Assembly: GCA_964649445.1 (NCBI GenBank)
Contig: CAZYPS010000005.1
Coordinates: forward strand, 1-54,929
Reading direction: 5' to 3'
DNA length: 54,929 nt
DNA from: an uncultured Thermotogae bacterium
Lineage (GTDB): Bacteria > Bipolaricaulota > Bipolaricaulia > M55B111
Positions 26,388 to 44,468 of this stretch are shown one piece after another. The first letter of the stretch is position 1, and each line of letters begins with the position of its first letter. The notes beneath the pieces are model-generated. The model made no database searches. It was not told the DNA's origin and saw only the letters and a program-made list of their open reading frames with translations. Made by a program: the position numbers and the translations under genes.

Positions 26388-26425
26388 GTATGTCGTTATA
26401 AAGACAGGCGGATAAAATCCCAGAT

Positions 26426-28053: not shown

Positions 28054-28086
28054 TGGAAAATAGAAATCTAACTTTGTAAGGGAGCC

Positions 28087-28135: not shown

Positions 28136-28158
28136 ATAACACTTTCGAGAGGTGAGGT

Positions 28159-29043: not shown

Positions 29044-29872
29044 CCGAGCAAAATGGAAGTTATTCAAACGGTTCGCTCTCTACGTTACTATAGTAGTCGC
29101 GATTCTTATCGTCTGCTTCCCGATAATATACGCAGCAGTGATGAGCACACGAGATCTTCAGGGAACGTTCCGTTACCCCCCAGATCTCATGCCCGGCAAC
29201 AGCGCCTTGAGTACCTATGCGCAGGCCTGGAATACAGTTAACCTGGGACGGCTCATGCTGAACTCCGGTATTGTAGCGGTCACTACGAGTATAGTGAAAA
29301 TCACCCTCGCGATGCTTGCGGCATTTGCGATCGTATTCTTTGATTTTAGGTGGAAATACCTGGCATTTGGGGCGACGTTTCTTACCCAATTGCTCCCGGT
29401 GCCGGTCAAGATCGTTCCTACTTTTCAATTAATGAGGAACTTTGGCTGGGTGGACAGTTACTATGCCCTGACTGTTCCTTATTTTGCCACTGCTACGGGA
29501 ACGTTTCTATTCCGCCAATTCTTTATGTCCGTGCCGGAAGATCTGGTCGATGCTGCCAGAGTGGACGGTTGCAGGCCGATGAGATTTCTGAAGGATATTT
29601 TAATTCCGCTTTCCTGGAATAATATCGGAGCGCTTTTTCTGGTTGAATTCGTCTACATGTGGAATAGATACCTCTGGCCTCTGGTAGTGACGGAGTCGGA
29701 ATCGATGAGGGTATCTCAAATCGGGATTAAGATGTTGATGACCACGGGTTCAATAAATAAGTGGAATATAATCATGGCCGGGGCTATCATCGTATTGTTA
29801 CCTCCTCTTGTCGTTCTCCTGTTTCTCCAGAAGACGTTTATCGAGGGATTTGTGATGAGGACTGGTAAATAA
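29033..29872 (+). CDS. ugpE: G3P ABC permease UgpE (copy 1)
   Basis: ATG 29033 after AGAGGGGTG; KITL..LAAFAIVFF, ATATGTFLFRQFF, DAARVDG, WNRYLWPL. Confidence 0.9.
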   Translation: MGVSRAKWKLFKRFALYVTIVVAILIVCFPIIYAAVMSTRDLQGTFRYPPDLMPGNSALSTYAQAWNTVNLGRLMLNSGIVAVTTSIVKITLAMLAAFAIVFFDFRWKYLAFGATFLTQLLPVPVKIVPTFQLMRNFGWVDSYYALTVPYFATATGTFLFRQFFMSVPEDLVDAARVDGCRPMRFLKDILIPLSWNNIGALFLVEFVYMWNRYLWPLVVTESESMRVSQIGIKMLMTTGSINKWNIIMAGAIIVLLPPLVVLLFLQKTFIEGFVMRTGK

Positions 29873-30469: not shown

Positions 30470-31786
30470 ATGAAAACGAAATTGGTTAGCCTAGTTCTTA
30501 TTTTCTCTCTCCTGTTAACCGGTATTACTTTTGCGGGTGCGGCTCAGGAAGAAACGGAGATTGATTTCTGGTATGCATTATCCGGTACGATCGCCGAAAC
30601 CACCTTGGAATTAGTAGAAGGTTTTAACGAAACTCACCCCAATATTCACGTCAATGCTGTAAACAAAGGTACATACTCCGAAGCTTTAACCTCTGCAGTC
30701 GCTGCTTATCGGTCAGGTAATGCTCCTGATATAGTTCAGGTCTACGAGGTAGGTACTCAGACGATGCTGGATAGTGGAGCAGTACACCCGCTTTGGAAAT
30801 TAGTTGAAGAATACGATTTAAATATCGACACTGAGAACTTTATCGCGCCGGTAAAAAGTTACTTCGAAGTAGACGGCAAGCTTGCTTCTCTGCCATTTAA
30901 CTCTTCCACGCCGGTAATGTATTACAACAAGGACGCTTTTGAAGAAGCCGGCTTGAATCCAAACCATCCTCCCAGAACTTTCGCCGAGGTCGAAGAGATG
31001 GGGAAACAGCTAATAAATAACACTGACGTTAAGTACGCCCTGACCGCCGGATGGCCGTCCTGGACATTGTTAGAAAATATGCATACCTGGCACAGACAAC
31101 CAATTGCCAACAACAATAACGGATACAGCGATTACGCTACTGAACTCAAAGTCAACCAGGATTTCAGTGTGGAACTTTTTGAGACCTACAGGAATTGGCA
31201 GCAGGAAAACGTATTTACCTACCAGGGCCGGGAAGGATCGCCCAACCCCAGCTTTTTAGGCGGGGACATCGGTATGATTATTACTTCGACTGCGTATCTA
31301 AGTGGATTTAAAGAAGCAGCTGAATTTGAAATAGGTACAACCTACTTGCCGCACATGCAGGGATACCCCCGTGGGAACTCATTAATAGGTGGCGCAACGT
31401 TGTGGGCGTTGAAAGGTAACTCCGAGGAGGAACAGGAAGCAACAGCCAAGTTCCTGGAATACGTTGCTCGGACGGACAACCAGGTGTTCTGGCATAAAAA
31501 TACCGGTTACTTCCCCGTCACCAATAGCGCTGTCAGGCGATTACTGGACGAAGGATGGTTTGCCGATAATCCAAATTATCTGACCGCTTTTCTCCAGATG
31601 TCCACCGGGGTTACTACTGAAGGGAACAAAGGGCTGAGGCTCGGTAATTTCGTTTCAATTCGGAACGTCCTGCTAAACCAAATCGAATCTATGTTCGGTG
31701 GGGACAGAACTCCGGAACGAGCTTTAAATAGAGCAGTTAGAGAAGTTAATGGAGTGCTGGATAATTACGTATCGTCTCAGGAATAA
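30470..31786 (+). CDS. ugpB: sn-glycerol-3-phosphate/glycerophosphodiester ABC substrate-binding protein (copy 2)
   Basis: QVYEVGTQTM, SLPFNSSTPVMYYNKDAF, GWPSW, IGGATLW, WHKNTGYFP, KGLRLGNF..IR. Confidence 0.9.
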   Translation: MKTKLVSLVLIFSLLLTGITFAGAAQEETEIDFWYALSGTIAETTLELVEGFNETHPNIHVNAVNKGTYSEALTSAVAAYRSGNAPDIVQVYEVGTQTMLDSGAVHPLWKLVEEYDLNIDTENFIAPVKSYFEVDGKLASLPFNSSTPVMYYNKDAFEEAGLNPNHPPRTFAEVEEMGKQLINNTDVKYALTAGWPSWTLLENMHTWHRQPIANNNNGYSDYATELKVNQDFSVELFETYRNWQQENVFTYQGREGSPNPSFLGGDIGMIITSTAYLSGFKEAAEFEIGTTYLPHMQGYPRGNSLIGGATLWALKGNSEEEQEATAKFLEYVARTDNQVFWHKNTGYFPVTNSAVRRLLDEGWFADNPNYLTAFLQMSTGVTTEGNKGLRLGNFVSIRNVLLNQIESMFGGDRTPERALNRAVREVNGVLDNYVSSQE

Positions 31787-31797
31787 GTTCGATTGAC

Positions 31798-31829
31798 AGA
31801 GTAGGGGGTGTTACTCCCCCTACTCTTTT
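31798..31829 (+). terminator. Intercistronic hairpin/terminator after SBP
   Basis: Perfect 11-bp stem AGAGTAGGGGG / CCCCCTACTCT followed by TTT. Confidence 0.75.
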
Positions 31830-31874
31830 GATTTGTGCCATAACTTAAGTGTTTTTAGCTAGTTAGATGAGGTT

Positions 31875-32807
31875 TTGTTTGCCATTATGTTTACCCGCAT
31901 GAAAAAGTTCTTCGAGTTAGATTTGAGTATGAACGATTTATTTGGTTCCTTTCAGAGTAACTTCCTTGCTTATCTATTTATACTCCCCCAGCTAGTTGTT
32001 ATTGGGATATTCTTTATTTACCCCACTATAAAATCCTTCCGGATGAGTTTGTTCCGAAGCGTGCCGTTTAGGGGTTTGGTAAACTTCGTGGGGCTAAAAA
32101 ACTTTATAGATATCTTTCAATCCCCTGCGTATCTCCAGTCAATCGTAGTAACGTTGATATTTGGCTTGGTGGTTACAGTATTAGGAGTAGGTGTATCTTT
32201 AGTAATAGCGAAAATGCTGGATGTAGTTGTCCGAGGGGTTGGGTTTTATCAAGCCGCCGTTATATGGCCTTATGCTATTTCCCCAACGATAGCTGGTATA
32301 ATATGGGGCTTTCTATTTCATCCCTCGCACGGGAGTATTAGCTATTTTTTACCCTTTGAGTTGAACTGGTTGACCAATGGGAGAGAAGCACTGGTCTTGG
32401 TTATACTGGCCGCTACGTGGAGGCAGCTGGGCTATAATATTGCTTTCTACATAGCAGGTTTGAAGGCAATACCTACGTCCTTCCAGGAAGCAGCTGTGGT
32501 AGACGGAGCAAACGGCTGGCAAAGGTTCTGGCACATTACCTTTCCGATGCTATCTCCGATAACGTTTTTCCTGGTTACCATGAATTTGATATACGCATTC
32601 TTTAGGACTTTCGGTTTAATACACGCGTTGACCCAGGGAGGTCCAGCGGGATATACAAATCTCATGATTTATAAGGTTTATACTGACGGGTTTACGGATT
32701 TAAGGTTGGGTTATTCAGCGGCTCAGTCGGTAATATTGCTACTATTTGTTGCAGGTATAACCATGTTCCAGTTTAAATTTGCCGAAAGAAGGGTAGCATA
32801 TCAATGA
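31875..32807 (+). CDS. ugpA: G3P ABC permease UgpA (copy 2); exact start uncertain
   Basis: IWPYAISP.IAG..W.FLF.P, W.QLGYN, EAAVVDGA, YAFF.TFG.I...TQGGP. Confidence 0.88.
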   Translation: MFAIMFTRMKKFFELDLSMNDLFGSFQSNFLAYLFILPQLVVIGIFFIYPTIKSFRMSLFRSVPFRGLVNFVGLKNFIDIFQSPAYLQSIVVTLIFGLVVTVLGVGVSLVIAKMLDVVVRGVGFYQAAVIWPYAISPTIAGIIWGFLFHPSHGSISYFLPFELNWLTNGREALVLVILAATWRQLGYNIAFYIAGLKAIPTSFQEAAVVDGANGWQRFWHITFPMLSPITFFLVTMNLIYAFFRTFGLIHALTQGGPAGYTNLMIYKVYTDGFTDLRLGYSAAQSVILLLFVAGITMFQFKFAERRVAYQ

Positions 32808-33652
32808 TCGCCATGATGAAAAAGTTAAGTGACAAGCTGAATTTCCGAATTTTAATCCACATTTTACTAATATTGACTATTTTTGTGTTAAGCTTCCCCC
32901 TGATATATACATTTATAGTTAGCACTCAGTCATTATCTGCAGCCGTAGCGATCCCCCCGAATTTAAAGGTGGGCGGGGGACTTATTGAAAATTATGCTAC
33001 TGCCTGGGGCCGTGCAAATATGGGAAGAGTATTGCTCAACAGCGGGATTATGTCTCTTTCAGTTACTGTGGGCAAAATTACTGTAGCTGCTATGACTGCA
33101 TTTGCCATAGTTTTCTTTGATCCTCCTGGGGGTAGATTCATATTCTTTATCACCTTATTGACTTTAATGCTCCCGATACCCGTCAGGCTATTACCTACTC
33201 ACGAAGTAGTAAGTTCGTTCGGCTGGATCGACACGTATTTTGCTCTTACTTTGCCGTACTTTGTCTCCGCTACTGCAACCTTTTTACTGCGACAGTTCTT
33301 TAAAACGGTGCCCCAGGATCTCGTTGACGCAGCCAGAGTGGACGGAGCCAGTCCTACACGTTTCTTCTTCCGGGTTCTGCTCCCGCTGTCAAGAACTAAT
33401 ATAGCTGCTCTCTTTGTAATTCTATTTATATGGACCTGGAACCAGTATCTCTGGCCATTAGTAGTAACAAACAGCGAAAACATGAGAGTAATGCAGCTCG
33501 GGATCAGTTTTTTGATCCCCAAAGGGGGTACTGGAATGCCTCCCTGGAATATAATTATGGCAGCTGTGGTTATTGCCGTATTGCCACCTCTTTTGGTTTT
33601 AATGATAATGCAGAGGGAATTTGTAAAAGGATTAATTGAGCCGGAAAAATAA
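32804..33652 (+). CDS. ugpE: G3P ABC permease UgpE (copy 2)
   Basis: TLMLP.PVR, SATATFLLRQFF, DAARVDGA, PLSRTNIAALF, WNQYLWPL. Confidence 0.9.
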   Translation: MIAMMKKLSDKLNFRILIHILLILTIFVLSFPLIYTFIVSTQSLSAAVAIPPNLKVGGGLIENYATAWGRANMGRVLLNSGIMSLSVTVGKITVAAMTAFAIVFFDPPGGRFIFFITLLTLMLPIPVRLLPTHEVVSSFGWIDTYFALTLPYFVSATATFLLRQFFKTVPQDLVDAARVDGASPTRFFFRVLLPLSRTNIAALFVILFIWTWNQYLWPLVVTNSENMRVMQLGISFLIPKGGTGMPPWNIIMAAVVIAVLPPLLVLMIMQREFVKGLIEPEK

Positions 33653-33879: not shown

Positions 33880-34782
33880 ATGAATAAAAGACGAAACAGC
33901 TTTTTAATAGCCGGTATTTTGCTACTGAGTTTCTTACTCGTCACGACTGTCGGGTTTGCCCAGGACGGAGAGGACTGTGCTAACCCGGACTCACTAACTT
34001 TCAGCGTAATTCCGACCGAAGATATCGCCCTCCACGCTGAGCGCTATCAGCCGTTACTTGATTGGATGAAGGAAAAGACCGGCAAGAGTATAGAATTCTA
34101 TGCACCGACTAGCTATAACGGCGTTATCGAAGCTATGAGGTCTGACTTCGTAGATATTGCCGGATTTGGTGCGTTTTCATATATCCTTGCCCATCAAAAG
34201 GCCGATGCTCAGGTATTTTCCATGAGGATAGACTCTCGAACTGGCGAACAAGGTTACTATTCCTATATGGTAACCAAGAGTGACTCAGGAATTGAGTCGG
34301 TCGAAGACCTGGAAGGTAAGACCTTTGCCTTTACCGATCCCGGTAGCACTTCGGGCAAACTTATTCCCAGTTATATATTCAAGAAAGAGGGCATAAATAC
34401 GGATGAATTTTTAAATCGCACGATCTTTGCAGGTGGTCACCAGTCCGCAGTTTTGGCCGTAAAAAGAGGGCAGGTTGACGCGGCTGCCGTCGCCAGTACC
34501 GTATATCAGCGGATGGCTAATAGAGAGGAAATTGATAAGGACAACGTAGTAATCTTCCGCAAATCGTCGCTGCTGCCCCTTGCTCCTCAGACTTACAGGG
34601 GAGACCTCTGTGATAGTCTAAAACAAGATATAGAGGAAGCTTACTTCACATTTGCGGAAGAGGCACCAAATGCTGACAAGCTACTTGAGCCAATGGACGC
34701 TACGAGGTTTGAGTCGGCAGAGGATTCTGACTTCGACCGAATTCGAGATATAATCGACATAATGGACGTCGAGGTCGGTTAA
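33880..34782 (+). CDS. phnD: Phosphate/phosphite/phosphonate ABC substrate-binding protein
   Basis: Signal peptide; SYNGVIEAM, G.FSY, DL.GKTFAFTDPGSTSG.L.P, GGH, G.VDAA. Confidence 0.9.
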   Translation: MNKRRNSFLIAGILLLSFLLVTTVGFAQDGEDCANPDSLTFSVIPTEDIALHAERYQPLLDWMKEKTGKSIEFYAPTSYNGVIEAMRSDFVDIAGFGAFSYILAHQKADAQVFSMRIDSRTGEQGYYSYMVTKSDSGIESVEDLEGKTFAFTDPGSTSGKLIPSYIFKKEGINTDEFLNRTIFAGGHQSAVLAVKRGQVDAAAVASTVYQRMANREEIDKDNVVIFRKSSLLPLAPQTYRGDLCDSLKQDIEEAYFTFAEEAPNADKLLEPMDATRFESAEDSDFDRIRDIIDIMDVEVG

Positions 34783-34808
34783 ATTACCGTCTTAAATAGA
34801 CTTTCAAT

Positions 34809-34849
34809 AAGGAGGCTGGGTTTTTCGCTAAACCCAGCCTCCTTTTTTT
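34809..34849 (+). terminator. Intercistronic hairpin/terminator after SBP
   Basis: 15-bp stem AAGGAGGCTGGGTTT / AAACCCAGCCTCCTT followed by a T-run. Confidence 0.8.
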
Positions 34850-34881
34850 GGAGGGAATGAGTTGAAAGGAGTGAAACGTAA

Positions 34882-35679
34882 ATGACAGCTGTGAATAATC
34901 AGAACGAATCGGAAGCCTCCGGGGCCGTACTGGTGGTCGAGGACCTCAAAAAAACGTATGGCACGGGGGATGAGGCGCTCAAAGGGGTTTCTTTCGAGGT
35001 TGGAAGCGGTGAATTTGTTTCGATAGTCGGTCCCAGCGGAGCAGGTAAGTCGACACTGATACGGTGTATAAATCGGTTAGTGGAGCCCGACAGTGGAAAG
35101 GTTACTCTGGAAGGGGTGGACGTCACGGCGTTAGGAAAAGGGGAATTAACCCAGACCAGGAGGAATATCGGTATGATATTTCAGGAATTTAACCTGGTCG
35201 AAAGATTGAGCGTAATGGAAAACGTCCTTTCCGGACGACTGGGCTATACCAGTACTATTAATAGCTTCCTCAGAAGGTTCTCGGACGAGGACGTTTCGTT
35301 TGCCCTCAAAACTCTGGAAAGAGTAGGGTTGAAGGAATTTGCCGACAACAGGGCTGATGAGCTTAGCGGGGGCCAGCGTCAGAGAGTTGGTATAGCCAGG
35401 GCAGTGGTCCAAAGACCCCGGATAATACTGGTTGATGAGCCGACTTCCAGTCTCGATCCCGAGATATCCCGGAACGTAATGGATTTGATAGAGGAAGTCA
35501 GCCAGGAAGACAATATGCCGGTTCTAATCAACCTTCATGACGTGGATCTAGCAAAGGAATACGGGGAAAGAATAATAGGCCTGAGGGACGGTGAAAAAAT
35601 ATTTGACGATGTCCCCGGGAAGTTCGACGAAAGAGCTATGGATGTCCTGTATCGAGGAGCCTCCGAGGATGAATATTAA
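34882..35679 (+). CDS. phnC: Phosphonate-type ABC ATP-binding protein
   Basis: GPSGAGKSTLIRCINRL, GMIFQEFNLVERL, NVLSGRLG, LSGGQRQRVGIARA, DEP..SLDP, INLH. Confidence 0.92.
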   Translation: MTAVNNQNESEASGAVLVVEDLKKTYGTGDEALKGVSFEVGSGEFVSIVGPSGAGKSTLIRCINRLVEPDSGKVTLEGVDVTALGKGELTQTRRNIGMIFQEFNLVERLSVMENVLSGRLGYTSTINSFLRRFSDEDVSFALKTLERVGLKEFADNRADELSGGQRQRVGIARAVVQRPRIILVDEPTSSLDPEISRNVMDLIEEVSQEDNMPVLINLHDVDLAKEYGERIIGLRDGEKIFDDVPGKFDERAMDVLYRGASEDEY

Positions 35680-35714
35680 ACCTGGACCGTATTTGGACCG
35701 GCGAGTGATAGACC

Positions 35715-36497
35715 GTGGATAACTGGGATCCCAAATCGAGAAGCGAAAAGATCAGGCAAAGAGGCCTAACTCTCGTGGCTCTGGGTTTAATTATCTGGAG
35801 TGCCCTGGCGATAGATATACAGTGGTCGACCATGGGGGGTATATCGGCGTTAGGGGATTTAATTGTTAGTTTTATTCCTCCCGATCTAAGCTACGTGCCA
35901 AATCTTCTTCAGCCCGCACTGGAAACGTTCGAGATGGCCGTAGTGGGAACCCTGGCGGCGGTGATTATGGCAGTCCCTGTGGCTCTAATTTCGGCCAAAA
36001 ATATTACGCCGAGCAAGGTTATCCTGTACCCAATTGGTCGGGCTATCATAGTGGTGAGCCGATCGGTTCACGAGATAATATGGGCTCTTATTTTCGTCGC
36101 TGCCCTGGGACTGGGACCTTTCGCCGGTACCTTGGCCCTTGGATTTAGGTCGATCGGTTTTCTCAGTAAGTTGCTAGCCGAAGAGATAGAGGGGATTGAT
36201 GAAGGGCAAATCGAAGCGATGAAAGCTTGTGGGGCCAACCGGGCGCAGATTATTCTGTTCGCGGTACTACCCCAGATCAAACCGCGTCTCATTGGGCTTA
36301 CGATCTATCGCTGGGATATTAATTTTCGAATGTCCACGGTTTTAGGAATTGTTGGGGCGGGCGGAATTGGTTACGAAATCCAGTCGGCTATGCAGCGGTT
36401 TCAGTACAACCAAGCTTCTTCAGTTATCCTGGTAATTCTAGTTATGGTCGCCATAGGTGAAGTCGTTTCAGCTCGGTTGAGGGAGCAAGTAACATGA
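35715..36497 (+). CDS. phnE: Phosphonate-type ABC permease
   Basis: ET.EMA..GT, RS..EIIWALIFV, GLGPFAG.LAL, KLLAEEIE, YRWDIN.R.STVLG.VGAGGIG. Confidence 0.92.
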   Translation: MDNWDPKSRSEKIRQRGLTLVALGLIIWSALAIDIQWSTMGGISALGDLIVSFIPPDLSYVPNLLQPALETFEMAVVGTLAAVIMAVPVALISAKNITPSKVILYPIGRAIIVVSRSVHEIIWALIFVAALGLGPFAGTLALGFRSIGFLSKLLAEEIEGIDEGQIEAMKACGANRAQIILFAVLPQIKPRLIGLTIYRWDINFRMSTVLGIVGAGGIGYEIQSAMQRFQYNQASSVILVILVMVAIGEVVSARLREQVT

Positions 36498-37309
36498 ATA
36501 AAGAAAACGAAAGAGATACCGAAAAAGAGTGGAGTCCGCGCTCGACCAGAAAGTCGCTTAAAAAGTACCTGGGATATTTTCTCATAGCTTCTGTTCTGAT
36601 TGGTATGATGTATTCGCTGGGGTTTAACTTTCTCAAGTTGGTTAATATATATAACCCTTTGTTCGATCTTTTCGGGAGGATGTTGCCGCCGGATATTGGT
36701 TACATACCCTCGAACCTGATCAAACCGACACTTGAGACATTCTACATGTCAATCCTCGGTACGGTTCTTGGGGTATTGATCTCGATACCGGTTGCCTGGT
36801 TTGCAGCTAGAAACGTTACTCCGATACCCTGGCTCACGTATCCGATAGGACGATTTCTGATCACTTTTACCCGATCTCTCCATTCTTTGATATGGGGTAT
36901 GATTTTTGTTGCGGCGGTCGGATTCGGTCCGTTGCCCGGCGTTCTGGCTTTGGGAATCCGAGGTATAGGTTTTGTGGGCAAGCTCCTTGCGGAGGAAATC
37001 GAAGATATTGATGAAGGTCAGGTAGAGGCGATCAAAGCTGCAGGAGGGAATAGTTTTCAGGTTCTCCTTTTTGGAGTAGTCCCGCAGGTAATACCTGAAT
37101 TTGTGGGCATAAGCGTCTATAGATGGGATATCTGCGTTAGGGCCTCTGCCATACTGGGATTCGTTGGAGCTGGAGGTCTGGGGTTCGAATTACAGCAAAC
37201 TATGAACCTATTCCAGTACCAGCGGGCTCTTGCGATCATACTTATCGTCATCGTCCTGGTGACAATTAGTGAGTCTATTTCGGCAGTTCTGAGAAACAGG
37301 GTCACTTGA
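36494..37309 (+). CDS. phnE: Phosphonate-type ABC permease (second subunit)
   Basis: G.GPLPGVLAL, GKLLAEEIE, YRWDI..RAS.ILG.VGAGGLG. Confidence 0.92.
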   Translation: MNKENERDTEKEWSPRSTRKSLKKYLGYFLIASVLIGMMYSLGFNFLKLVNIYNPLFDLFGRMLPPDIGYIPSNLIKPTLETFYMSILGTVLGVLISIPVAWFAARNVTPIPWLTYPIGRFLITFTRSLHSLIWGMIFVAAVGFGPLPGVLALGIRGIGFVGKLLAEEIEDIDEGQVEAIKAAGGNSFQVLLFGVVPQVIPEFVGISVYRWDICVRASAILGFVGAGGLGFELQQTMNLFQYQRALAIILIVIVLVTISESISAVLRNRVT

Positions 37310-37347
37310 AAAGGTTTAAGGAAAATAGAAGTCTCTAAAGGTTAAAT

Positions 37348-38232
37348 ATGAGTCAACTGATTTATCCCGAAAGGAAAGCGAAAGAAAAACTTGGCGAACT
37401 ACTGTCCGGAGGCGTCGTCCACCCGTTGCACAAGAAGGGCTTCCTGATTGATATCGACGGAGTAGTCTGCCGTGGAATGGAACTAATTAAAGGTGCGGAC
37501 GAAGTAATCAGAAAGTTGAGGGAAAACGAGAAAAGGACGGTATTTGTTTCCAACAATTCGACGAAGTCCCCTCGACTGTATAAGGGGAAGATGTCGGAGC
37601 TTGGGATAGAAGTTGAGGAAAAAGATCTGGTTCTGGCCACTGTTGTTGCGGCCGACCATATCAGGGAGAAAACCCCGAATGCCAGTGTGTACGTGGTCGG
37701 GGATAAAGGGCTTGGGGAGACAATGGAAGAATACGGGCTGGAAACCACGGAAGTGCCCGGGGAGTCGGATTACGTGGTTGTCGGAAATCCGTTTAGGCGA
37801 GACGGAAGACTAAGAGACGGTAACGACGGTAAAATAACAGGGGCAGTAAGGGCTATACTGGAGAACGACGCGAAGTTTATTGCCGTCAACGTCGATACGA
37901 TATTTCCCACAGAAAATGGACCCGTTCCCGCTACAGGGGCTATCGTTAAGGCAATTGCTCATTCGACCGGTCATTCGCCCGATATAGTTGCCGGTAAACC
38001 GGAGAAGCCCATGATTTCGCTGGCCCTGGAAAGGTTAAACCTAAAGCCGGAAGAGTGCGTTCTGATAGGGGATTCCCGGGTAGATATGGTGGCAGCCCAG
38101 GAGTATGGGTTAACGTCGGTTTTTGTAAGGACGGGCTCTGCTGAGGAACGGGACCTCGAAGAGGAAGGCGTCTTTCCCGACTTTGCTTTGGATTCGATCA
38201 GGGATCTACTCGTGGTTGAAAATTCCAGTTGA
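37348..38232 (+). CDS. HAD-IIA (NagD-like) phosphatase
   Basis: DIDGV motif I, SNNS, GKP, IGD..D. Confidence 0.88.
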   Translation: MSQLIYPERKAKEKLGELLSGGVVHPLHKKGFLIDIDGVVCRGMELIKGADEVIRKLRENEKRTVFVSNNSTKSPRLYKGKMSELGIEVEEKDLVLATVVAADHIREKTPNASVYVVGDKGLGETMEEYGLETTEVPGESDYVVVGNPFRRDGRLRDGNDGKITGAVRAILENDAKFIAVNVDTIFPTENGPVPATGAIVKAIAHSTGHSPDIVAGKPEKPMISLALERLNLKPEECVLIGDSRVDMVAAQEYGLTSVFVRTGSAEERDLEEEGVFPDFALDSIRDLLVVENSS

Positions 38233-38327
38233 TCGAAAGTTGTAGGGAGGTATGAGTTAGGCCACGTAGCCTGGAGCCCTGGAGGCTGTCCAGTGGGGAT
38301 TTTGGCTTAAATTTTAGACAAAAACAA

Positions 38328-39413
38328 ATGCAAATTAACTCAAAAACAGTAGGATACTTCGTTCAAAATAGGAAAAGATGGGATGATGCGTATTTTGGTA
38401 GAGGTAATGTAGAAGGAACGCCGGCGTACGCTCAGCTCCACGAATACGCGATGGTCCAATCGCCACTGAGCGGTGAGGAGTTTTACACGGACGGGGAGGA
38501 ACTGGTTAATTGGGAAGCCAGAACTGCTCACGAACTTCGCCTCGATATACCCGATATTACGTTCGATTGCTATAATATCGAAGTCGAAGCCCTGGGGGGT
38601 GAGGTTAGATATTTTGACGATAAAGCCCCAGGGTTGATAGACCCTCCAGTGGAAAATAAGAGTGAATTACTCCGCCTTGATCCTCCCGACCCATACAGGG
38701 ATGGAAGGATGCCTTTTGTCTTTGAAATAGTTGAGGAGTACGAGAATTTGTTCGGCTGTTTCCCGAGATTAAACGTTACTGCCCCGTTTACCCTGGCGGC
38801 GAAACTGCGAGGGGTCCAGAACTTTTTGATGGACATAGTGCGGGATAGTAGTTTCGTTAAAGACTTATTGAGCTTTGTAACCGAGGAAGTGCTTGAGCCG
38901 TATATTAATGCCATTAAAGCGGTCAGAAGCTACGAAGGAGAAGTAATTGCCGCTGATGCCATCGCTTCCCCACCGAACCTGGACCTGGATTTATTGGAAG
39001 AGCTGGCCCTACAACCTCTTTTACAACTAAAGAAGTCCTGCGGGGAAGACGTAGTTATCCTGAACTGGTGGGGGGAAAGCCATGTCAAAGATCCCAATAG
39101 GTTGATGGAATTAAAAACCCGTGCCAGTTCCGGAAAGGTGTTAGAGGGCCAGGACCCCGATGTTAACGAACTCGGTCCTGAAAGATACCGGGATTTCGCC
39201 TTATCACGTGATACGTCCCTTATACTGGGAGTTGGGACGGATATGATGATGATGGGAGATCCGACTTCAGTAAAAGAAAGAGTGAAAAGATATTTAAAGG
39301 TCGGAGAAGATATGAAAGGTAGGTTCTTGCTTTATTTTACGAACCTCGTCGGAGATACGCCCCTGGAAAATATTCAAGCTGCCATGGGAGTTTTGAAGGA
39401 ATCTGGCAATTGA
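38328..39413 (+). CDS. Uroporphyrinogen decarboxylase/MtaA-CmuA fold protein of unknown function
   Basis: D.YNIE.EALG, DP..DGRMP, APFTLA..LRG...FLMD, D..ASP, TPLENI.A. It lacks the UroD MRQAGR motif and the MtaA Zn ligands (HxC...C). Confidence 0.8.
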   Translation: MQINSKTVGYFVQNRKRWDDAYFGRGNVEGTPAYAQLHEYAMVQSPLSGEEFYTDGEELVNWEARTAHELRLDIPDITFDCYNIEVEALGGEVRYFDDKAPGLIDPPVENKSELLRLDPPDPYRDGRMPFVFEIVEEYENLFGCFPRLNVTAPFTLAAKLRGVQNFLMDIVRDSSFVKDLLSFVTEEVLEPYINAIKAVRSYEGEVIAADAIASPPNLDLDLLEELALQPLLQLKKSCGEDVVILNWWGESHVKDPNRLMELKTRASSGKVLEGQDPDVNELGPERYRDFALSRDTSLILGVGTDMMMMGDPTSVKERVKRYLKVGEDMKGRFLLYFTNLVGDTPLENIQAAMGVLKESGN

Positions 39414-39468
39414 GCCCAAGGTTGGTAGAATTTCACATTTTTTCCTGCTGGACGTGAAGGAGGCACAA

Positions 39469-40257
39469 ATGATTAAAGGGTTTATATTCGATTTGGATGG
39501 GACTGTCTACTTGAGTGACAAACTTATTCCGGGTGTAGAAGAGTTAGTGAATGGGTTAAAGAAAAATGATTACAGAATGGTCTACCTTTCTAACAAACCC
39601 TTACAGAGAAGATCCACTTACGCGAAAAAGTTAACGGAACTTGGAATTACTACCCCTGAGGATCAGGTGGTAAACTCTTCTTACGTCATGGCTAACCATA
39701 TTTCAAAAGTTGCTCCCGGGGCGAGTGTTTACGTGATAGGGGAAAAGCCGTTAATTGACGAACTGGAAGAGGCTGGATTAAGGATAACAGAGGATCCCGA
39801 GCAAATAGATTATGTCGTAGCAAGTTTCGATCGGGATTTTCACTATGACAAGCTCCAGATAGCTTACGAAGCCATCAAGCACGGGGCGAATTTTGTCGCA
39901 ACAAACCCGGATCGCACCTGTCCGGTTGAGGGAGGAGAGGTACCTGACGCGGCAGGGATGATTGGAGCAATCGAAGGAGTAACTGGAAAACAGGTAGAGA
40001 AAATTGCCGGAAAGCCCTCCGAGTTAATGGTGGAGGCGGCACTTGATAGGCTGGAAATTAAACCCGAAGAGTGTCTTTTAGTGGGGGACAGATTGGAAAC
40101 CGATATTAAGATGGGAAATAACAGTGGAATAAGCACGGCTTTAGTCCTATCCGGGGTAACTGATCTTGAGGATCTGGAAAAGTCCTCCGTTAAACCGACG
40201 TATGTATTGGAAGATTTATCCCAGTTGCCGGAGAAAGTGGAGCTGGTTGATATTTAG
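39469..40257 (+). CDS. HAD-IIA (NagD-like) phosphatase
   Basis: ATG 39469 after AAGGAGG; FDLDGT, LSN, ATNPD, GKPS, VGDRLETDI, LVLSGVT. Confidence 0.92.
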   Translation: MIKGFIFDLDGTVYLSDKLIPGVEELVNGLKKNDYRMVYLSNKPLQRRSTYAKKLTELGITTPEDQVVNSSYVMANHISKVAPGASVYVIGEKPLIDELEEAGLRITEDPEQIDYVVASFDRDFHYDKLQIAYEAIKHGANFVATNPDRTCPVEGGEVPDAAGMIGAIEGVTGKQVEKIAGKPSELMVEAALDRLEIKPEECLLVGDRLETDIKMGNNSGISTALVLSGVTDLEDLEKSSVKPTYVLEDLSQLPEKVELVDI

Positions 40258-40564: not shown

Positions 40565-41509
40565 CTAGATCGCCATATCGAGACCTTTATAAAGCAAGAA
40601 TGCGAAAAGAGCAGCTGCCGTAGGAGTAGCCACCCAGCCAATAACGATTTCGATTATCTTTCTAAAACTTACCGTGCTTGTACCTTTCACGAGTCCGACG
40701 CCGATTATTGCTCCTACTATGGCCTGAGAGGTGGAGACTGGGATACCAATTATGGAGAAAAAATGGACTGCAACAGCTGCAGCTGTCTGTGCTGCTACGG
40801 CAGAAAGGGGGCCGAGAGTAGTTATCCCTTTACCAACCGTTTCCGTGACCCGTCGTCCGTAAGTAAGCACACCAATAGAAAGAGAAATTCCACCCAGTAA
40901 GGCCAGCCAAGTCTGGTTTATTCCCAGTACAGTTAGGGGACCGACGGAGTTTCCAACGTCATTCGATCCGAGAGAAAACGCCACGTATGCTCCCGAAAGA
41001 ATTACCATATAGCTGAGTAGTTTGTCCCAGAAGGTCACCATTTTTACCCGTTTAAGGAAGAATGAAAGTATGTGGTAAAGAGTAAAACTCATAATTGCCG
41101 TGAGCGGGGGAGATATTACCCAGACTTCCCCTATGGTAATGACCTTAGAGAAATTTACGGCGTTTCCCATAGAAAGACCTGCACCTACTACCCCGCCCAC
41201 TATAGCCTGAGAGGTAGAGACGGGAACTTTGAAGAACGTTGCAAAAGTAACAAAGACGCCGGCGGAAAGCATGGCGGTGAGAACGCCCGTCATGTTGAGC
41301 GGGTTAGGAACTACCCCTTCCCCGATCGTTTTCATTACGTTATGGCTCTGAAGGAGAGCTCCCAGTACTACAAAGATCGCCACGACATAGACCATCTTGC
41401 GGTAAGAAATAAGGCCGGAGCCTACCGGGGTTCCGATACAATTGGCGGTGTCATTGGCTCCAATGTTCCATCCTACGTAAAAGCCCGCGACGATCAATAA
41501 AACTATCAT
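40565..41509 (-). CDS. Inorganic phosphate transporter, PiT family
   Basis: IGANDTAN and LGSNDVGN signature repeats; two PVSTSQAIVG motifs. Confidence 0.92.
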   Translation of the reverse strand: MIVLLIVAGFYVGWNIGANDTANCIGTPVGSGLISYRKMVYVVAIFVVLGALLQSHNVMKTIGEGVVPNPLNMTGVLTAMLSAGVFVTFATFFKVPVSTSQAIVGGVVGAGLSMGNAVNFSKVITIGEVWVISPPLTAIMSFTLYHILSFFLKRVKMVTFWDKLLSYMVILSGAYVAFSLGSNDVGNSVGPLTVLGINQTWLALLGGISLSIGVLTYGRRVTETVGKGITTLGPLSAVAAQTAAAVAVHFFSIIGIPVSTSQAIVGAIIGVGLVKGTSTVSFRKIIEIVIGWVATPTAAALFAFLLYKGLDMAI

Positions 41510-41539
41510 TCCTAATAATCAGGGGCCTGGAACATTGTG

Positions 41540-42247
41540 TTATCGGTTCGTCATAATCCTTATGAAGTTCGCGGCATTTTCAATATGATCCAGAATATTG
41601 TTGGCCTTGAGGGCAACCTGGATTAAGTGATACTTTTCTATTCCTTCCATGTTTTCGGAATTATAAATGGATTTTATCGCTTTTCTCGTTGTCTTATCGG
41701 CGCTGTGTTCCAGGTTGTTTATCTCTTCGATGGATTCTCGGACTTGGTCCAGTTTGCCCTCACCATCGCTGGTACCTTTTATAACCGCCCCGGCATTTAT
41801 GACCAGCTTGCTGTATTCTGAGACTGACTTTTCAAGAATATCGGCCAGACTATTCAGAGAATCCTTGTACTGATCAGGCAATTTATCCGTGAGATTTAAC
41901 AAAGGTAGTAATTCGGCAACATCCTGAGAGTTGTCGGCTATTTCATCCTGGTGCCATAGTAACGATAGCAGGTCCGATCTGGCAACGGGCATTAAAAGAT
42001 CGCTTCGAGGTAACTCCTTCCGAATTTCCTGTTTTTCCTGATCGGCTTCGAATTCGTAATTTGACACCATTTCTCCCTGTATTTCTTTTCCCTGAGTGTA
42101 ATCATGTAATTCTTCTACTAAAGCTTCGACGGTTGCCTCTACTTTTTCGGCGTGTTTAGATAACTGTTCAAATGGCGAAGTCTCAGTTAGATATCCGGCG
42201 AAGGAACGTTTGAAATTTTTAATCTTCTTAAAACTGAAAAACGACAT
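41540..42247 (-). CDS. DUF47 (PhoU-like) phosphate transport regulator
   Basis: E.EAD..K.EIR, PVARSDLL, QD.IAD, LEH.AD, D.IENAA; co-oriented with PiT. Confidence 0.88.
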   Translation of the reverse strand: MSFFSFKKIKNFKRSFAGYLTETSPFEQLSKHAEKVEATVEALVEELHDYTQGKEIQGEMVSNYEFEADQEKQEIRKELPRSDLLMPVARSDLLSLLWHQDEIADNSQDVAELLPLLNLTDKLPDQYKDSLNSLADILEKSVSEYSKLVINAGAVIKGTSDGEGKLDQVRESIEEINNLEHSADKTTRKAIKSIYNSENMEGIEKYHLIQVALKANNILDHIENAANFIRIMTNR

Positions 42248-42694: not shown

Positions 42695-43567
42695 ATGAAT
42701 GAGAGCAAAAATAGAAATTTGTTAAATATTGCCCACAGAGGCGCCCGGAGTATAGCACCGGAGAATACACTGGTAGCTGGTAGAAAGGCTTACAGGGAAG
42801 GAGCGGATTTTTGGGAGTTTGACGTTCGACTTACCGGAGATGGAGAACTGATAGTTTTCCACGACGAAACTCTAACACGAACTACTGATGTTTGTGAAGT
42901 CTTTCCTGATAGAGATTATTACAGGGTAAGTAATTTCGATTTTTCCGAAATAAGACGGCTTGATGCGGGCAGCTGGTTTGGGGAATCGGATCCGTTTGGA
43001 GAAGTAAGCCGTGGTGCCATTTCTGGATCCGATTTGAAGTTGTATTCGGGTGTAGAAGTACCTTCGCTTCGGGAGGCTCTGGAGCTAACGAAGTACCTTG
43101 ATTGGAGGGCAAATATTGAACTTAAGTTTTCTAACGGGCGGGAGGCAAAAGTATTGGAAGAGCGAACCACCAGCGTTTTGCGGCAACTCGTTGATTTGGC
43201 TGAGGAATTGGGGGTGCTGAACAGGGTCGTAGTATCATCTTTCAGCCATGGAGCTATCGGGAAGCTAAAAAACTTTCACTCTGCAATAAAAGGTGCTTTG
43301 CTGGTTAAAGAGCCTTTGGCCAGACCTATAGAGTACCTGGAAGAATATAACGCCAAGATCCTTAATTTGAAGGAATCCGCGGTTCAGACGGAGGCGGGGC
43401 TCAGCAATATTAAGGAAATAGGTGGCGCTAGTCCCAAATACGCGGTAAATTTGTGGACCGTCAACAAAAAAGAAAAAATGAAGGAGTACCTCTTGAATCC
43501 GTTTATAGATGGGTTAGTTACTGATTATCCCGGTAGACTGTCGGAGGTTATTTCAGGGTCAGCTTAG
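42695..43567 (+). CDS. ugpQ: Cytoplasmic glycerophosphodiester phosphodiesterase
   Basis: IAHRGA...APENT, EFDV.LT.DG.L..FHD..L.RTT, NIELK, SSF, WTVN, G.VTDYP; no signal peptide. Confidence 0.92.
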   Translation: MNESKNRNLLNIAHRGARSIAPENTLVAGRKAYREGADFWEFDVRLTGDGELIVFHDETLTRTTDVCEVFPDRDYYRVSNFDFSEIRRLDAGSWFGESDPFGEVSRGAISGSDLKLYSGVEVPSLREALELTKYLDWRANIELKFSNGREAKVLEERTTSVLRQLVDLAEELGVLNRVVVSSFSHGAIGKLKNFHSAIKGALLVKEPLARPIEYLEEYNAKILNLKESAVQTEAGLSNIKEIGGASPKYAVNLWTVNKKEKMKEYLLNPFIDGLVTDYPGRLSEVISGSA

Positions 43568-43627
43568 CTGGTTAAGAATTATTGCTTGGAATAAGCACCA
43601 TTAATTTGAATGACTTCTTTGGTTTTC

Positions 43628-43661
43628 TTGACAATACCCTTTTATCTTCCTATGTTATAGT
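43628..43661 (+). promoter_or_regulatory. Promoter of DeoR regulator (probably leaderless transcript)
   Basis: TTGACA 43628-43633; TATGTT at 17 nt spacing and extended -10 TGTTATAGT 43653-43661; no SD before ATG 43668. Confidence 0.55.
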
Positions 43662-43667
43662 TTGATT

Positions 43668-44468
43668 ATGTCTGACATTCTTGCAGAAGAAAGAAGAAGA
43701 AAAATCTTAGAGGAGTTAGAGGCTGAAGGAACTGTTAAGACCGCCCAGCTGGCAAAACTATTTTCCGTTTCGGAAGTGACAATCCGCCGAGACCTCGAGG
43801 TTCTGAAGGAAGAAGGGAAATTGAAGAAGGTCCACGGTGGGGCAGTAGCGAACGAAAAGAACTTTCAGTCTTCCTATCACGGCGATACAATCACATTTGA
43901 GCCATCTTTTCAGGAAAAAGCTGAAGTAAATAAACAGGAAAAGGAAAAGATAGGAGAAAAAGCCGTTTCATTGATTAAAGACGGGAGTTCTGTCTTCATT
44001 GGTACGGGCACTACTACGATGCAGATCGTAAAAAATATTGGAGATAGGGCTGCCCTAACTGTGGTAACGAATTCTCTGAATCACGGGCTGGAGCTGGCGA
44101 GAACTCCCGAGGTAGAGGTATTAATAACCGGCGGGCAATTGCGAAAGAATACTTCCGCTTTAGTCGGCCCAATTGCAAAACGATCATTCGAGGAAATATA
44201 TGTCGATACATTATTCCTCGGGGTAAACGGAATCTCCATTGATCATGGTTATACGGTACCGTCGCTGAGAGAGGCGGACATGGCACGAAGTATTATGGGT
44301 ATGGCCGATGAAGTAATTATAGTGGCTGATTTTTCAAAGTTCGGTAAAGTAAGCCATGCAAAGGTGGCGGAAATTGACGGGGCGCATAGGATCATAACTG
44401 ACGATCAGGTCGACGATTCTTACAGGGAGGCACTTTCCGATATTGGGGTAGATCTGCTGGTGGCTTAA
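43668..44468 (+). CDS. DeoR/GlpR family transcriptional regulator
   Basis: ERR..IL, LA..FSVSEVTIRRDL..L, VHGGA, GTGTTT, VVTNS, ADFSKFG. Confidence 0.93.
   Translation: MSDILAEERRRKILEELEAEGTVKTAQLAKLFSVSEVTIRRDLEVLKEEGKLKKVHGGAVANEKNFQSSYHGDTITFEPSFQEKAEVNKQEKEKIGEKAVSLIKDGSSVFIGTGTTTMQIVKNIGDRAALTVVTNSLNHGLELARTPEVEVLITGGQLRKNTSALVGPIAKRSFEEIYVDTLFLGVNGISIDHGYTVPSLREADMARSIMGMADEVIIVADFSKFGKVSHAKVAEIDGAHRIITDDQVDDSYREALSDIGVDLLVA

Follow-up and report, generated by a model that had tools for sequence, protein, structure and literature searches.

A zinc-less UroD/MtaA-fold protein between two phosphatases: a candidate route to methyl groups and phosphate in a bacterial glycerol-phosphate island

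What would a Phn-type importer without a C-P lyase supply to two phosphatases that enclose a UroD/MtaA-fold protein? The question is raised by a 54,929-nucleotide stretch of DNA (the window), in which the transporter is followed by two intact NagD-like phosphatase genes, HAD1 and HAD2, around a UroD-like gene, seven genes all on the + strand, as the initial annotation had read them. Its implicit premise of a haloarchaeal host was not borne out: the source is a Bipolaricaulota bacterium, its closest named relative being a MAG from Great Salt Lake, and its own MAG comprises 2.26 Mb in 218 contigs and is 89.6% complete. The junctions from UgpE to HAD2 are all spanned, with zero differences, by contigs from three sequencing runs, one of which was not flagged as a possible source. 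The UroD-like gene has a dN/dS of 0.15 against its 86% orthologue, and the gene order persists despite saturated synonymous sites (pS 0.77-0.94). Assembly of the PhnDCEE-HAD1-UroD-like-HAD2 order is sound, the order is genuine, and purifying selection acts on it.

The UroD-like protein (38328..39413, + strand) scores 73 bits against PF01208 (cut-off 23.9), a family with 23 matches genome-wide. Its AF2 model (pLDDT 94.9) has MtaA as best solved match (4ay7; Z 32.5, rmsd 2.9 over 327 residues, Foldseek E 3.4e-13, profile E 4e-22), and a D-x-x-A-S-P motif is common to both; MtaA-type NCBIfam models, whose cut-offs are 235-400 bits, score it at only 35-48. The motif losses first noticed by eye in the letters hold in profile alignment to 4ay7: the MtaA zinc motif LHICG aligns with LNWWG, the late Cys of PGCG falls on the T of LYFTN, where most relatives keep a Cys (LYLCN), and the N-terminal Arg motif of UROD has no counterpart (YAQLHEY). 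Loss of the zinc site by which MtaA chemistry is defined counts against a corrinoid-dependent methyltransferase, and the acid-rich barrel mouth (E39, D80, E85, D210, E250, D276, D278) could equally accommodate a metal, sugar or pterin. Within the genome the protein alone represents a small MtaA-like clade that is zinc-less, marked by the motif NW[WV]GE and apparently spread over few lineages only; literature searches found no characterised member.

Relatives of the protein are repeatedly joined to corrinoid proteins. Among 71 homologue ORFs from genome loci, 14 are 599-713 aa long; these form one clade (support 0.94), all five that were scanned carry B12-binding and B12-binding_2 domains, and a further homologue, P0024, is likewise fused. 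At 8 of 81 genome loci a free-standing corrinoid-protein gene is no more than 6 kb away, at 11 of 50 metagenome loci one adjoins the homologue, and a pterin-binding methyltransferase gene is near it at 5/81 genome loci. Elsewhere, the Bipolaricaulota genome itself encodes two MtgC-like corrinoid proteins, a methyl-THF:corrinoid methyltransferase and two RACo-type activases. Because the zinc-less clade is tied to corrinoid proteins, the methylated substrate proposed at the outset was a reasonable guess. We suggest, tentatively and at a little under an even chance, that the UroD-like protein is a corrinoid-dependent methyltransferase that demethylates an organophosphate brought in from outside, or the head group of one; its substrate could be a phosphocholine-type compound, the methyl phosphate ester of the initial annotation, or something else. 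Lying between phosphatases, this uncharacterised methyltransferase-like enzyme suggests a candidate route by which organophosphates would yield both methyl groups and phosphate after import.

The proposed setting is an island of about 30 kb that handles glycerol, glycerol phosphate and glycerophosphodiesters, its host being a halophile that scavenges methyl groups. At its catabolic end (13739..19940, + strand) Pfam models identify a glycerol-3-phosphate dehydrogenase-like set (DAO+BFD, Pyr_redox_2, DUF1667, DAO+DAO_C) and a glycerol kinase (FGGY). Within 20229..29872 (+ strand) lie two MalK/UgpC-type ABC ATPases with two permeases, a first UgpB-like binding protein, also aligned with E. coli UgpB, with two more permeases, and a 610-aa ORF with no Pfam family match. 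A second UgpB, UgpA and UgpE set follows (30470..33652, + strand; NCBIfam E 1.8e-106, 1.2e-81 and 4.5e-83, none reaching the equivalog cut-off), whose UgpB retains the W-x-x-W pair of the glycerol-phosphate clamp in alignment with E. coli UgpB. Beyond the phn genes, HAD1 (37348..38232, + strand) and HAD2 (39454..40257, + strand) pass the HAD-IIA model TIGR01460 (131.5 and 142.6 bits, cut-off 100.15), their nucleophile motifs, DIDG and DLDG, intact in the translations. Family models then place a Pit-family (PHO4) transporter with its PhoU_div (DUF47) partner (40565..42247, - strand) and a glycerophosphodiester phosphodiesterase (GDPD) with a DeoR/GlpR-family regulator (42695..44468, + strand). 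As had been proposed, the cluster fits glycerol-phosphate or organophosphate metabolism, not phosphonate C-P cleavage; a PhnT-family importer of glycerol phosphates that has no C-P lyase, that of GpxB, was already published.

In this island the two Ugp-type importers and the PhnT-type PhnDCEE would take up glycerol-phosphate-like esters, which GDPD and both HAD-IIA phosphatases would split; glycerol would pass by way of GlpK to the G3P dehydrogenase gene products, and Pit/PhoU_div would move the phosphate. The UroD/MtaA-fold protein would act as a substrate-side (MT1) type methyltransferase, most likely corrinoid-dependent, passing a methyl group from the organophosphate or a released head group to a free-standing corrinoid protein encoded in the genome and on to tetrahydrofolate. 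We know of no phosphorylated substrate for the UroD fold. Corrinoid-dependent demethylation of a phosphate ester has a precedent in the phosphocholine pathway of E. limosum (PMC12155760), and the known UroD-fold MT1 enzymes act on O-, S- or halogen-bound methyl groups (PMC10418091).

Adjacency by itself is no proof of a common pathway, and the Ugp, Phn, HAD, GDPD and Pit genes could be an ordinary organophosphate and phosphate module, and the UroD-like enzyme beside them may remove methyl groups from a solute that carries no phosphate, for instance a methylated sugar or polyol imported by a CUT1 transporter. Such an arrangement would suit a 44%-identical sister clade, in which the gene lies 3' of CUT1 sugar-type ABC genes with LacI, PfkB and AP_endonuc_2 and HAD-IIA is absent, as well as Spirochaetaceae and other loci that have CUT1 transporters without phosphate genes. 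The phn block can also be lost: of four informative relatives three retain it, and the fourth, L009, has a clean deletion of phnDCEE together with the 5' portion of HAD1. What is left of HAD1 there is truncated and frameshifted, the UroD-like gene and HAD2 are intact, and the second UgpBAE set is 95-97% identical to that in the window. As the UroD-like gene is visibly unharmed there, the importer is dispensable for it, and PhnDCEE is, by comparison of these loci, a lineage-specific add-on. Against mere neighbourhood, however, HAD-IIA is the immediate neighbour of the UroD-like gene in four separate lineages: the Bipolaricaulota clade (HAD2 in 5/5 loci), Halanaerobiales-type loci (GlpK, Pit/PhoU_div, UgpBAE, HAD-IIA or GDPD in 9/10), Anaerolineales (in the order PDE-GHMP kinase-DHH-HAD-UroDL) and Paracoccaceae, where a B12-fused form stands beside GlpD-like, Fe-ADH_2, FGGY and HAD-IIA genes. 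Pit/PhoU_div adjoins the gene in Halanaerobiales-type loci and is one gene off in Desulfobacterota loci, and the gaps of 39-96 nt from phnE through HAD1 and the UroD-like gene to HAD2 suggest a single transcript. HAD2, 48-56% identical to the HADs adjoining the Anaerolineales homologues, belongs on this evidence to the type that accompanies the UroD-like gene from phylum to phylum, and the conserved partners of that gene across phyla are UgpBAE, HAD-IIA phosphatase, Pit/PhoU_div, GDPD and GlpK. The linkage anticipated by the initial annotation is thus found for HAD-IIA in other genomes and phyla, and for phn within one genus-level clade only. We consider an unrelated, unphosphorylated substrate somewhat unlikely.

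The UroD-like protein may instead not be a methyltransferase, and act as a cofactor-free decarboxylase-like enzyme, a lyase or a binding protein for a glycerol-phosphate derivative. It retains an Asp aligned with UROD Asp86, every zinc ligand is lost, along with the last Cys within its clade, and no corrinoid-protein gene was found in the window or in the 13 loci tested from the two phosphate-context clades, the Bipolaricaulota-type and the Halanaerobiales-type. Identical motifs in the B12-fused and corrinoid-adjacent clades, and the absence of equivalents of UROD Arg37/Arg41 and Tyr164, argue the other way and make this an unlikely function.

What the phn genes import bears on the substrate separately. 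The PhnD-like, PhnT-family binding protein (33880..34782, + strand) matches PF12974 (E 2.9e-70) and TIGR01098 (243.7 bits, cut-off 112) and falls narrowly below the cut-off of TIGR03431 (253.2 against 261.1 bits). Its gene is followed by a G+C-rich hairpin of 15 bp with a T run (34809..34844, + strand), and a similar one lies 3' of ugpB (31798-31826), both by pattern match only. PhnC (34882-35679) and two PhnE permeases (35715-36497 and 36494-37309), on the + strand within 34882..37309, exceed the cut-offs of TIGR02315 (334.3 against 266.1) and TIGR01097 (292.8 and 288.3 against 216.7). Family-model scans found no phnG-M, phnX or ptxD in the window, in agreement with the initial annotation, and the C-P lyase elsewhere that would have spoken against it was not found, PhnJ and PhnI having no match across the 89.6%-complete MAG. 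The sole PhnX match in the MAG (20.8 bits) is HAD1 itself, and the four D-2-hydroxyacid dehydrogenases that it holds are generic, family-level assignments, not PtxD-specific, with none near phn.

Structure-profile alignment puts Ala235 and Thr207 at the cap positions of PhnD; the residues there are Tyr208 in PtxB, and Asp205 and Glu177 in E. coli PhnD. PhnD thus has neither the phosphite cap (Tyr) nor the aminoethylphosphonate/aminoalkylphosphonate cap (Asp/Glu), so the ligand tail is probably uncharged: glycerol phosphate, as in GpxB, a PhnT-family glycerol-1/3-phosphate binder published in 2025 whose importer has no C-P lyase (PMC12718374), or a small alkyl phosphate or phosphonate. Import of phosphate or phosphite would agree with PtxB proteins being the best solved matches (E 2.2e-41 and 9.5e-39, against 4.9e-32 for GpxB), with a first-lobe motif, G-A-F-S-Y, that resembles PtxB and is unlike GpxB T111/G112, and with picocyanobacterial PhnD1, which likewise lacks a C-P lyase and is argued to be a constitutive phosphate transporter (PMC10284923). 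We find it improbable, however, as the capping Tyr, reportedly strictly conserved in phosphite binders, is Ala in PhnD, PhnD1-type structures match weakly (7s6g, E 1.7e-14; 5lq5, E 1.1e-10), and a phosphatase gene lies directly 3' of the permeases.

If the UroD-like protein does harvest methyl groups from organophosphates, the donor could be an N-methyl head group (phosphocholine, glycerophosphocholine, or the partly demethylated dimethyl- or monomethyl-aminoethanol phosphates). The enzyme would then do the work of an MthB-type enzyme or follow one, with the HADs freeing phosphate from the demethylated product. To our knowledge, and by textbook account, choline-type head groups are the only common glycerophosphodiester ones to bear methyl groups. 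Relatives adjoin MttB (11/81 genome loci), Pyl-type MtbB (4/81), kinases and Pit, there is a non-Pyl MttB homologue 12 kb further downstream, and the NWW motif and the abundant acidic residues could build a cation-binding cage. E. limosum moves the phosphocholine methyl group onto a corrinoid protein, though with an MttB-family enzyme (PMC12155760). The N-methyl:corrinoid methyltransferases that we know of, however, are all of the MttB, MtbB and MtmB families, none of the UroD fold. The UroD-fold demethylases listed in PMC10418091 are for O-, S- and halogen-methyl only. Choline esters are ubiquitous, whereas the clade appears in few lineages, and the island has no choline-specific gene; we judge this donor distinctly unlikely.

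The initial annotation had speculated on a methylated glycerophosphate of the PGP-Me type; the evidence does not tell a methyl phosphate ester apart from N-methylated head groups, phosphocholine among them. As the host is a Bipolaricaulota bacterium, PGP-Me would be food from haloarchaeal neighbours, not its own lipid. The UroD-like enzyme would move the O-methyl of a glycerophosphate methyl ester or methyl phosphate to corrinoid, the HADs would strip the phosphates, and GlpK would re-phosphorylate the glycerol, correcting the archaeal G1P stereochemistry, so that a phosphatase and GlpK in one cluster would be sensible. Both phosphate-context clades come from halophile lineages (the Great Salt Lake Bipolaricaulota MAG, Halanaerobiales, Halanaerobiaceae), PhnT and Ugp systems have been demonstrated to import archaeal G1P in bacteria, a methyl or methoxy tail would fit the small neutral PhnD cap, known UroD-fold MT1 enzymes take O-, S- and halogen-bound methyl groups and not N-methyl (PMC10418091), and no MtaB was found to capture methanol released by GDPD. 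We nevertheless regard it as very unlikely: corrinoid-dependent demethylation at a phosphate ester oxygen has no known precedent, a title-level literature search found no paper on PGP-Me with demethylation or corrinoid, non-halophile relatives (Anaerolineales, Desulfobacterales, Paracoccaceae) have nearly identical active-site motifs, and the enzymes that release ether-lipid head groups lack identified candidates.

Among known systems, the UroD-like protein resembles the MtaA/MtbA methylcobamide:coenzyme M methyltransferases (4ay7) in its UroD-type TIM barrel (Z 32.5), its D-x-x-A-S-P motif and the corrinoid-binding proteins beside or fused to its relatives, and differs in about 20% identity, in having Asn-Trp-Trp...Thr for the His-x-Cys...Cys zinc site, and in NCBIfam scores far under the cut-offs. 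Coenzyme M is not expected in a bacterium. In the proteobacterial clade the two-part architecture matches that of the chloromethane methyltransferase CmuA, a fusion of an MtaA-like and a corrinoid domain that works with the pterin-binding CmuB, and a pterin-binding methyltransferase gene sometimes comes next; the protein in the window is unfused, unlike CmuA, which retains the zinc motif. The HADs resemble NagD/PGP-type HAD-IIA enzymes in passing TIGR01460 with catalytic motifs kept, and fall short of specific equivalogs (157.8 and 181.8 bits on the TK1734 phosphoglycolate phosphatase model, cut-off 475). With E. coli ugpBAEC-ugpQ the island has in common the UgpB/A/E homologues, the W-x-x-W pair and a GDPD enzyme; unlike it, the homologues are under equivalog cut-offs, the ATPase genes lie apart, and the partners are Pit and PhoU_div, not the Pho-regulated Pst. 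GpxBCD (9LF9; PMC12718374) offers a PhnD-family binder with no C-P lyase link, no aromatic cap, an Arg223 aligned with PhnD Arg211 and a glycerol-phosphate genomic setting; it differs at Thr247 (Ala235 in PhnD) and Thr111/Gly112 (Ala98/Phe99), PtxB outscores it overall, and the window has two PhnE permeases. Finally, the MthK/MthB/MthC/MthA system of the acetogen E. limosum (PMC12155760) uses an MttB-family substrate enzyme and a kinase where the window has a UroD fold and phosphatases, and is alike in what we propose here, the corrinoid-dependent harvest of methyl groups from a phosphate ester.

The gene order proposed in the initial annotation, PhnD-PhnC-PhnE-PhnE-HAD-URO-D fold-HAD, is correct, and all of the genes lie on the + strand. 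PhnD (33880–34782) opens the series and is followed by PhnC and two PhnE genes; after the second PhnE come a HAD-IIA phosphatase (HAD1, 37348–38232), the URO-D-fold protein (UroDL, 38328–39413) and a second HAD-IIA phosphatase (HAD2, 39454–40257), with intergenic gaps of 39–96 nt from phnE onward. An assembly chimera is ruled out, as contigs of three sequencing runs, including one that carries no flag as a potential source, span all of the junctions with zero differences. The window is contig C5 of a MAG of 2.26 Mb that is 89.6% complete, and the host is a bacterium rather than a haloarchaeon. A haloarchaeal origin is ruled out by the closest relative (L009), a Candidatus Bipolaricaulota of the same genus that bears a Great Salt Lake isolate name and has 86–97% protein identity, as well as 91.5% nucleotide identity across ugpBAE.

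The seven genes are embedded in a larger island, which contains G3P-dehydrogenase-like genes and a glycerol kinase (13739–19940), MalK-type ATPases and permeases, and two UgpB-type systems (26746–33652). Downstream of HAD2 lie Pit and PhoU_div on the opposite strand, and a GDPD phosphodiesterase and a DeoR/GlpR regulator are also found downstream. In both UgpB homologues a W-x-x-W pair is invariant, and as judged by alignment its spacing matches that of the Trp188/Trp191 clamp of Phaeobacter UgpB (PMC12718374). Strong hairpins with T runs lie 3' of both binding-protein genes, ugpB (31798–31826) and phnD (34809–34844), consistent with the binding proteins being expressed above the membrane parts. 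A 610-aa ORF (24555–26387, +), with ABC permeases on one side and a UgpB-like binding protein on the other, falls in no Pfam family, and its sole solved-structure match, to a sugar ABC binding protein, is weak (E 0.0012). Elsewhere in the window, Dak2/FakA-like domains and a DegV domain share a single 600-aa ORF (10691–12493, +), which would carry both components of a fatty-acid kinase on one polypeptide and is followed by a DUF1295 gene.

The core of UroDL between two HAD genes, together with the Ugp, Pit and GDPD genes around it, is a genuine, conserved association, so far unexplained. Neighborhood analysis of the family bears out the link to the phosphatases: of 81 genome loci, 10 have a HAD-IIA gene within 6 kb of the family gene. 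At this distance, 12 loci have a UgpB-type binding protein, 8 have Pit and 5 have PhoU_div. The Halanaerobiales-type loci have the order GlpK-UroDL-PhoU_div-Pit-UgpB-UgpA-UgpE-HAD-GDPD-G3P dehydrogenase (L067, L069, L109, L127), which is found in part in five others (L082, L111, L112, L113, L122). In all, nine of ten such loci have a phosphate/glycerol context, and the tenth (L110) is without flank. The Bipolaricaulota and Halanaerobiales-type clades each have a support of 1.0 and their union only 0.10, so descent from a single well-supported ancestor is not enough to account for the context they share. Other lineages show different arrangements: phosphodiesterase-GHMP kinase-DHH-HAD-UroDL in Anaerolineales, where the HAD is 48–56% identical to HAD2, and UroDL-alanine racemase-Pit-PhoU_div in Desulfobacterota, sometimes with MttB in front. 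A Paracoccaceae MAG (L021:4042–12990) has a B12-fused form of the family protein, set between a group of GlpD-like, Fe-ADH_2, FGGY and Cof-type HAD genes and a HAD-IIA gene, in a cluster that also has a DeoR regulator; the Fe-ADH_2 family includes glycerol-1-phosphate dehydrogenase. In a sister clade of 44% identity, the gene follows CUT1 sugar-type transporters with LacI, PfkB and AP_endonuc_2, and no HAD-IIA gene is present. One locus of this clade (L102:3827–5146) has a fused nucleotidyltransferase/CDP-alcohol phosphatidyltransferase upstream of the CUT1 transporter and UroDL, with PfkB and AP_endonuc_2 genes nearby, an architecture known from di-myo-inositol-phosphate synthesis.

The phn block (33880–37309) is a narrower feature. 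PhnC and PhnE pass the PhnCDE-transporter equivalog scores, while PhnD misses its equivalog (253.2 vs 261.1) and passes the broader subfamily TIGR01098. Close cluster relatives of PhnD number only about eight, at 79–84% identity, and the next best have at most 39%. The protein was found in 3 of 151 sampled genomes of the phylum, one of these matches reaching just 31% identity, and a related-locus search with PhnD alone as the query found none. The full order ugpBAE-phnDCEE-HAD1-UroDL-HAD2 recurs in a genome of the same genus (G083, across two contigs) and, together with Pit and PhoU_div, in a metagenome contig (L096), despite UroDL being only 66–69% identical and synonymous sites being saturated. 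A further locus (L097) has HAD1-UroDL-HAD2, with upstream DNA too short to show phn. Homology to L009 skips from 33650 to 37585 of the window, and L009 (3802–4430) has cleanly lost phnDCEE along with the initial 79 codons of HAD1, the remnant of which is frameshifted. Its UroDL and HAD2 are intact and under purifying selection (dN/dS 0.15 and 0.056), which for UroDL rules out a pseudogene or decaying enzyme, and the importer and HAD1 thus form a dispensable sub-module. The loss looks recent, as the frameshifted HAD1 remnant still has a dN/dS of 0.13; the deletion joint was not seen in the sequencing runs searched, which is uninformative either way. In another locus (L010), PhnDCE lies 7 kb from UroDL with housekeeping genes between, and we do not count this as linkage. 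Of the linkage to phn and HAD genes in other genomes, the HAD part stands across lineages, and the phn part is absent in the closest relative.

The lack of C-P cleavage genes pointed out in the initial annotation agrees with searches of the whole 89.6%-complete MAG, in which PhnJ and PhnI were unmatched and the sole PhnX match (20.8 bits) was HAD1 itself, although at this completeness their absence is not proven. A search that was not PtxD-specific gave four generic 2-hydroxyacid dehydrogenases in the MAG, zero of them near phn. PhnT importers without C-P lyase are already published, namely GpxB (PMC12718374) and the picocyanobacterial PhnD1 (PMC10284923). Such an importer is no longer surprising by itself, and the transporter part is largely accounted for by recent work.

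What this importer carries can be narrowed by comparison with solved binding proteins. The best matches of PhnD are two PtxB phosphite binders (5lv1, E 2.2e-41; 5jvb, E 9.5e-39), followed by GpxB, a glycerol-1/3-phosphate binder (9lf9, E 4.9e-32), and E. coli PhnD (3p7i, E 4.3e-29), these entries being identified from PMC5700983 and PMC12718374. Aminoethylphosphonate uptake is rejected because the Asp/Glu cap is missing: where E. coli PhnD binds the amine of 2-aminoethylphosphonate through Asp205 and Glu177, the aligned residues here are Ala235 and Thr207. Dedicated phosphite uptake is rejected for want of the Tyr cap: Tyr208 of PtxB (Te_PtxB Y208), which confers phosphite specificity (PMC5700983), is Ala235 in three of three PtxB alignments. 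With these cap residues missing, the pocket is of neither the phosphite nor the aminoalkylphosphonate type and, going by its aligned residues, probably accepts an uncharged tail. Compared with GpxB, Arg223 is kept as Arg211 in the sequence alignment, whereas Thr247 and Thr111/Gly112 are not, being Ala235 and Ala98/Phe99. Our guess, as the most economical one given the neighbors, is that the ligand may be glycerol-phosphate-like or a small alkyl phosphate ester.

A confident AF2 model of UroDL (pLDDT 94.9) confirms, at the level of predicted structure, the UroD-type TIM-barrel fold. The nearest structure, also top by Foldseek, is MtaA (4ay7; Z 32.5, rmsd 2.9 over 327 residues), and UROD structures are next (Z 28–30). 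The residue changes noted from the sequence are all upheld. In a profile alignment with Methanosarcina mazei MtaA (4ay7), the zinc motif LHICG is LNWWG and the late Cys is the Thr of LYFTN, so that the His-x-Cys and late Cys zinc ligands of MtaA, MtbA and CmuA are N-W-W and Thr in UroDL. The UROD-type Arg motif is missing from the N terminus, and relative to HemE, the catalytic residues Arg37/Arg41 and Tyr164 have no counterpart; only the equivalent of Asp86 (D80) is kept. Both phosphatases are intact as proposed, keeping the DxD nucleophile motif, and both pass TIGR01460. UroDL passes Pfam PF01208 (73 bits vs a cut-off of 23.9) but scores 48.4, 39.6 and 35.6 bits on the MtaA/MtbA/CmuA models (TIGR01463, NF040654), against cut-offs of 244, 400 and 235.4, and ESM Atlas returned only “URO-D family”. 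It is the sole member of its family in the genome, where 6 of 19 other aligned paralogues have the H-x-C-G zinc motif. The family, drawn from 1.84 billion representatives, comprises 105 clusters at 50% identity (E ≤ 1e-30) or 763 (E ≤ 1e-10), with the motifs YNIEAEALG, GRMPF, DAxASxP, NW[WVI]GE, QDPD and LY(L/F)(C/T/S)N all placed at the C-terminal ends of barrel strands in the AF2 model. No characterized member was found in the searched literature; at 105 clusters this is a small, coherent, uncharacterized clade, currently annotated as “uroporphyrinogen decarboxylase”.

We read the family as corrinoid-dependent methyltransferases mainly because of its B12 fusions and its corrinoid and methyltransferase neighbors. 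Fourteen of 71 homologue ORFs from genome loci are 599–713 aa long, two B12-binding domains were present in all five scanned, and the fused forms group as one clade (support 0.94). One search gave no homologues above 632 aa, a weak negative since the fused forms are 599–713 aa. Free corrinoid-protein genes occur no more than 6 kb away in 8 of 81 genome loci and directly alongside the family gene in 11 of 50 metagenome loci, and MttB (11/81), Pyl-type MtbB (4/81) and pterin-binding methyltransferase (5/81) genes occur near family genes. A substrate-side (MT1) role is favored, since a pterin-binding enzyme comes after some of the fused forms in the way that CmuB comes after CmuA. For UroDL itself, corrinoid dependence is suggested by these fused or adjacent relatives; its own locus has no corrinoid gene, nor do 13 tested loci of the Bipolaricaulota and Halanaerobiales-type clades. 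Corrinoid methyl-transfer parts are plentiful in the genome, which has two MtgC-like corrinoid proteins, encoded at C2:73600–74349 and C37:10941–11654, one methyl-THF:corrinoid methyltransferase and two RACo-type activases; MtaB was not found in it. There are 23 PF01208 (URO-D) matches in the 2.26 Mb but just four to B12-binding; a small set of corrinoid proteins seems to serve many substrate enzymes. An MttB-family protein (52318–53784, +) is flanked by a Cys/Met PLP enzyme and PanB and has no corrinoid gene alongside; it scores 407.5 bits on TIGR02369, under the cut-off of 525, and its uninterrupted frame means that it has no pyrrolysine codon. In Desulfobacterales MAGs (L049, L065, L050, L037), UroDL directly follows a Dimeth_Pyl dimethylamine methyltransferase gene that splits into two ORFs, as expected with an in-frame pyrrolysine codon.

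The initial annotation thus holds for gene order, motifs and the C-P lyase that was not found, and its interpretation, the stepwise dismantling of an imported, perhaps methylated glycerophosphate, is only partly supported. In the pathway we propose, GDPD and the HADs would split imported glycerol-phosphate-type esters, the released glycerol would be re-phosphorylated and then oxidized, and Pit would carry the phosphate. Pit is a low-affinity, reversible carrier, and its presence rather than that of Pst fits catabolic use more than starvation scavenging. UroDL would draw a methyl group from the ester or its head group, and the acceptor would be a corrinoid protein whose gene lies elsewhere. If it is a methyltransferase acting on an organophosphate, corrinoid methyl-transfer systems would gain an extra substrate class, and phosphorus recycling would be joined to methyl-based energy metabolism in hypersaline sediments. 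We consider it a long shot that halophilic anaerobes, among them Bipolaricaulota and Halanaerobiales, use this zinc-less enzyme in a corrinoid-dependent way to demethylate the head-group phosphate methyl ester of PGP-Me, the main haloarchaeal lipid, after Ugp/PhnT import, with the methyl group passing to acetogenesis and the phosphatases and GlpK recycling G1P. If true, it would be without precedent both as a corrinoid O-demethylation of a phosphate ester and as a catabolic route for PGP-Me. The idea of a methyl phosphate ester is kept alive by the halophile origin of both clades, by a phosphatase and kinase that suit an archaeal G1P backbone, and by the O-, S- and halogen-bound methyl groups on which the known UroD-fold substrate enzymes act (PMC10418091). 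The locus is a testable candidate for bacterial use of the polar head groups of neighbors' lipids, archaeal ones included, a topic opened only in 2025 with the discovery of glycerol-1-phosphate importers.

Among known systems, the Mlp/SCMT cluster proteins of Kountz and Balskus were chosen by >25% identity to a characterized coenzyme M methyltransferase (PMC10418091), whereas UroDL is about 20% identical to MtaA. The excerpted description of the dual methionine synthase/glycine betaine system (PMC12478193) mentions no UroD-fold part. The phosphate-ester precedent is the corrinoid-linked demethylation of phosphocholine by MthB of E. limosum (PMC12155760); MthB is an MttB-family enzyme, whereas UroDL has the UroD fold.
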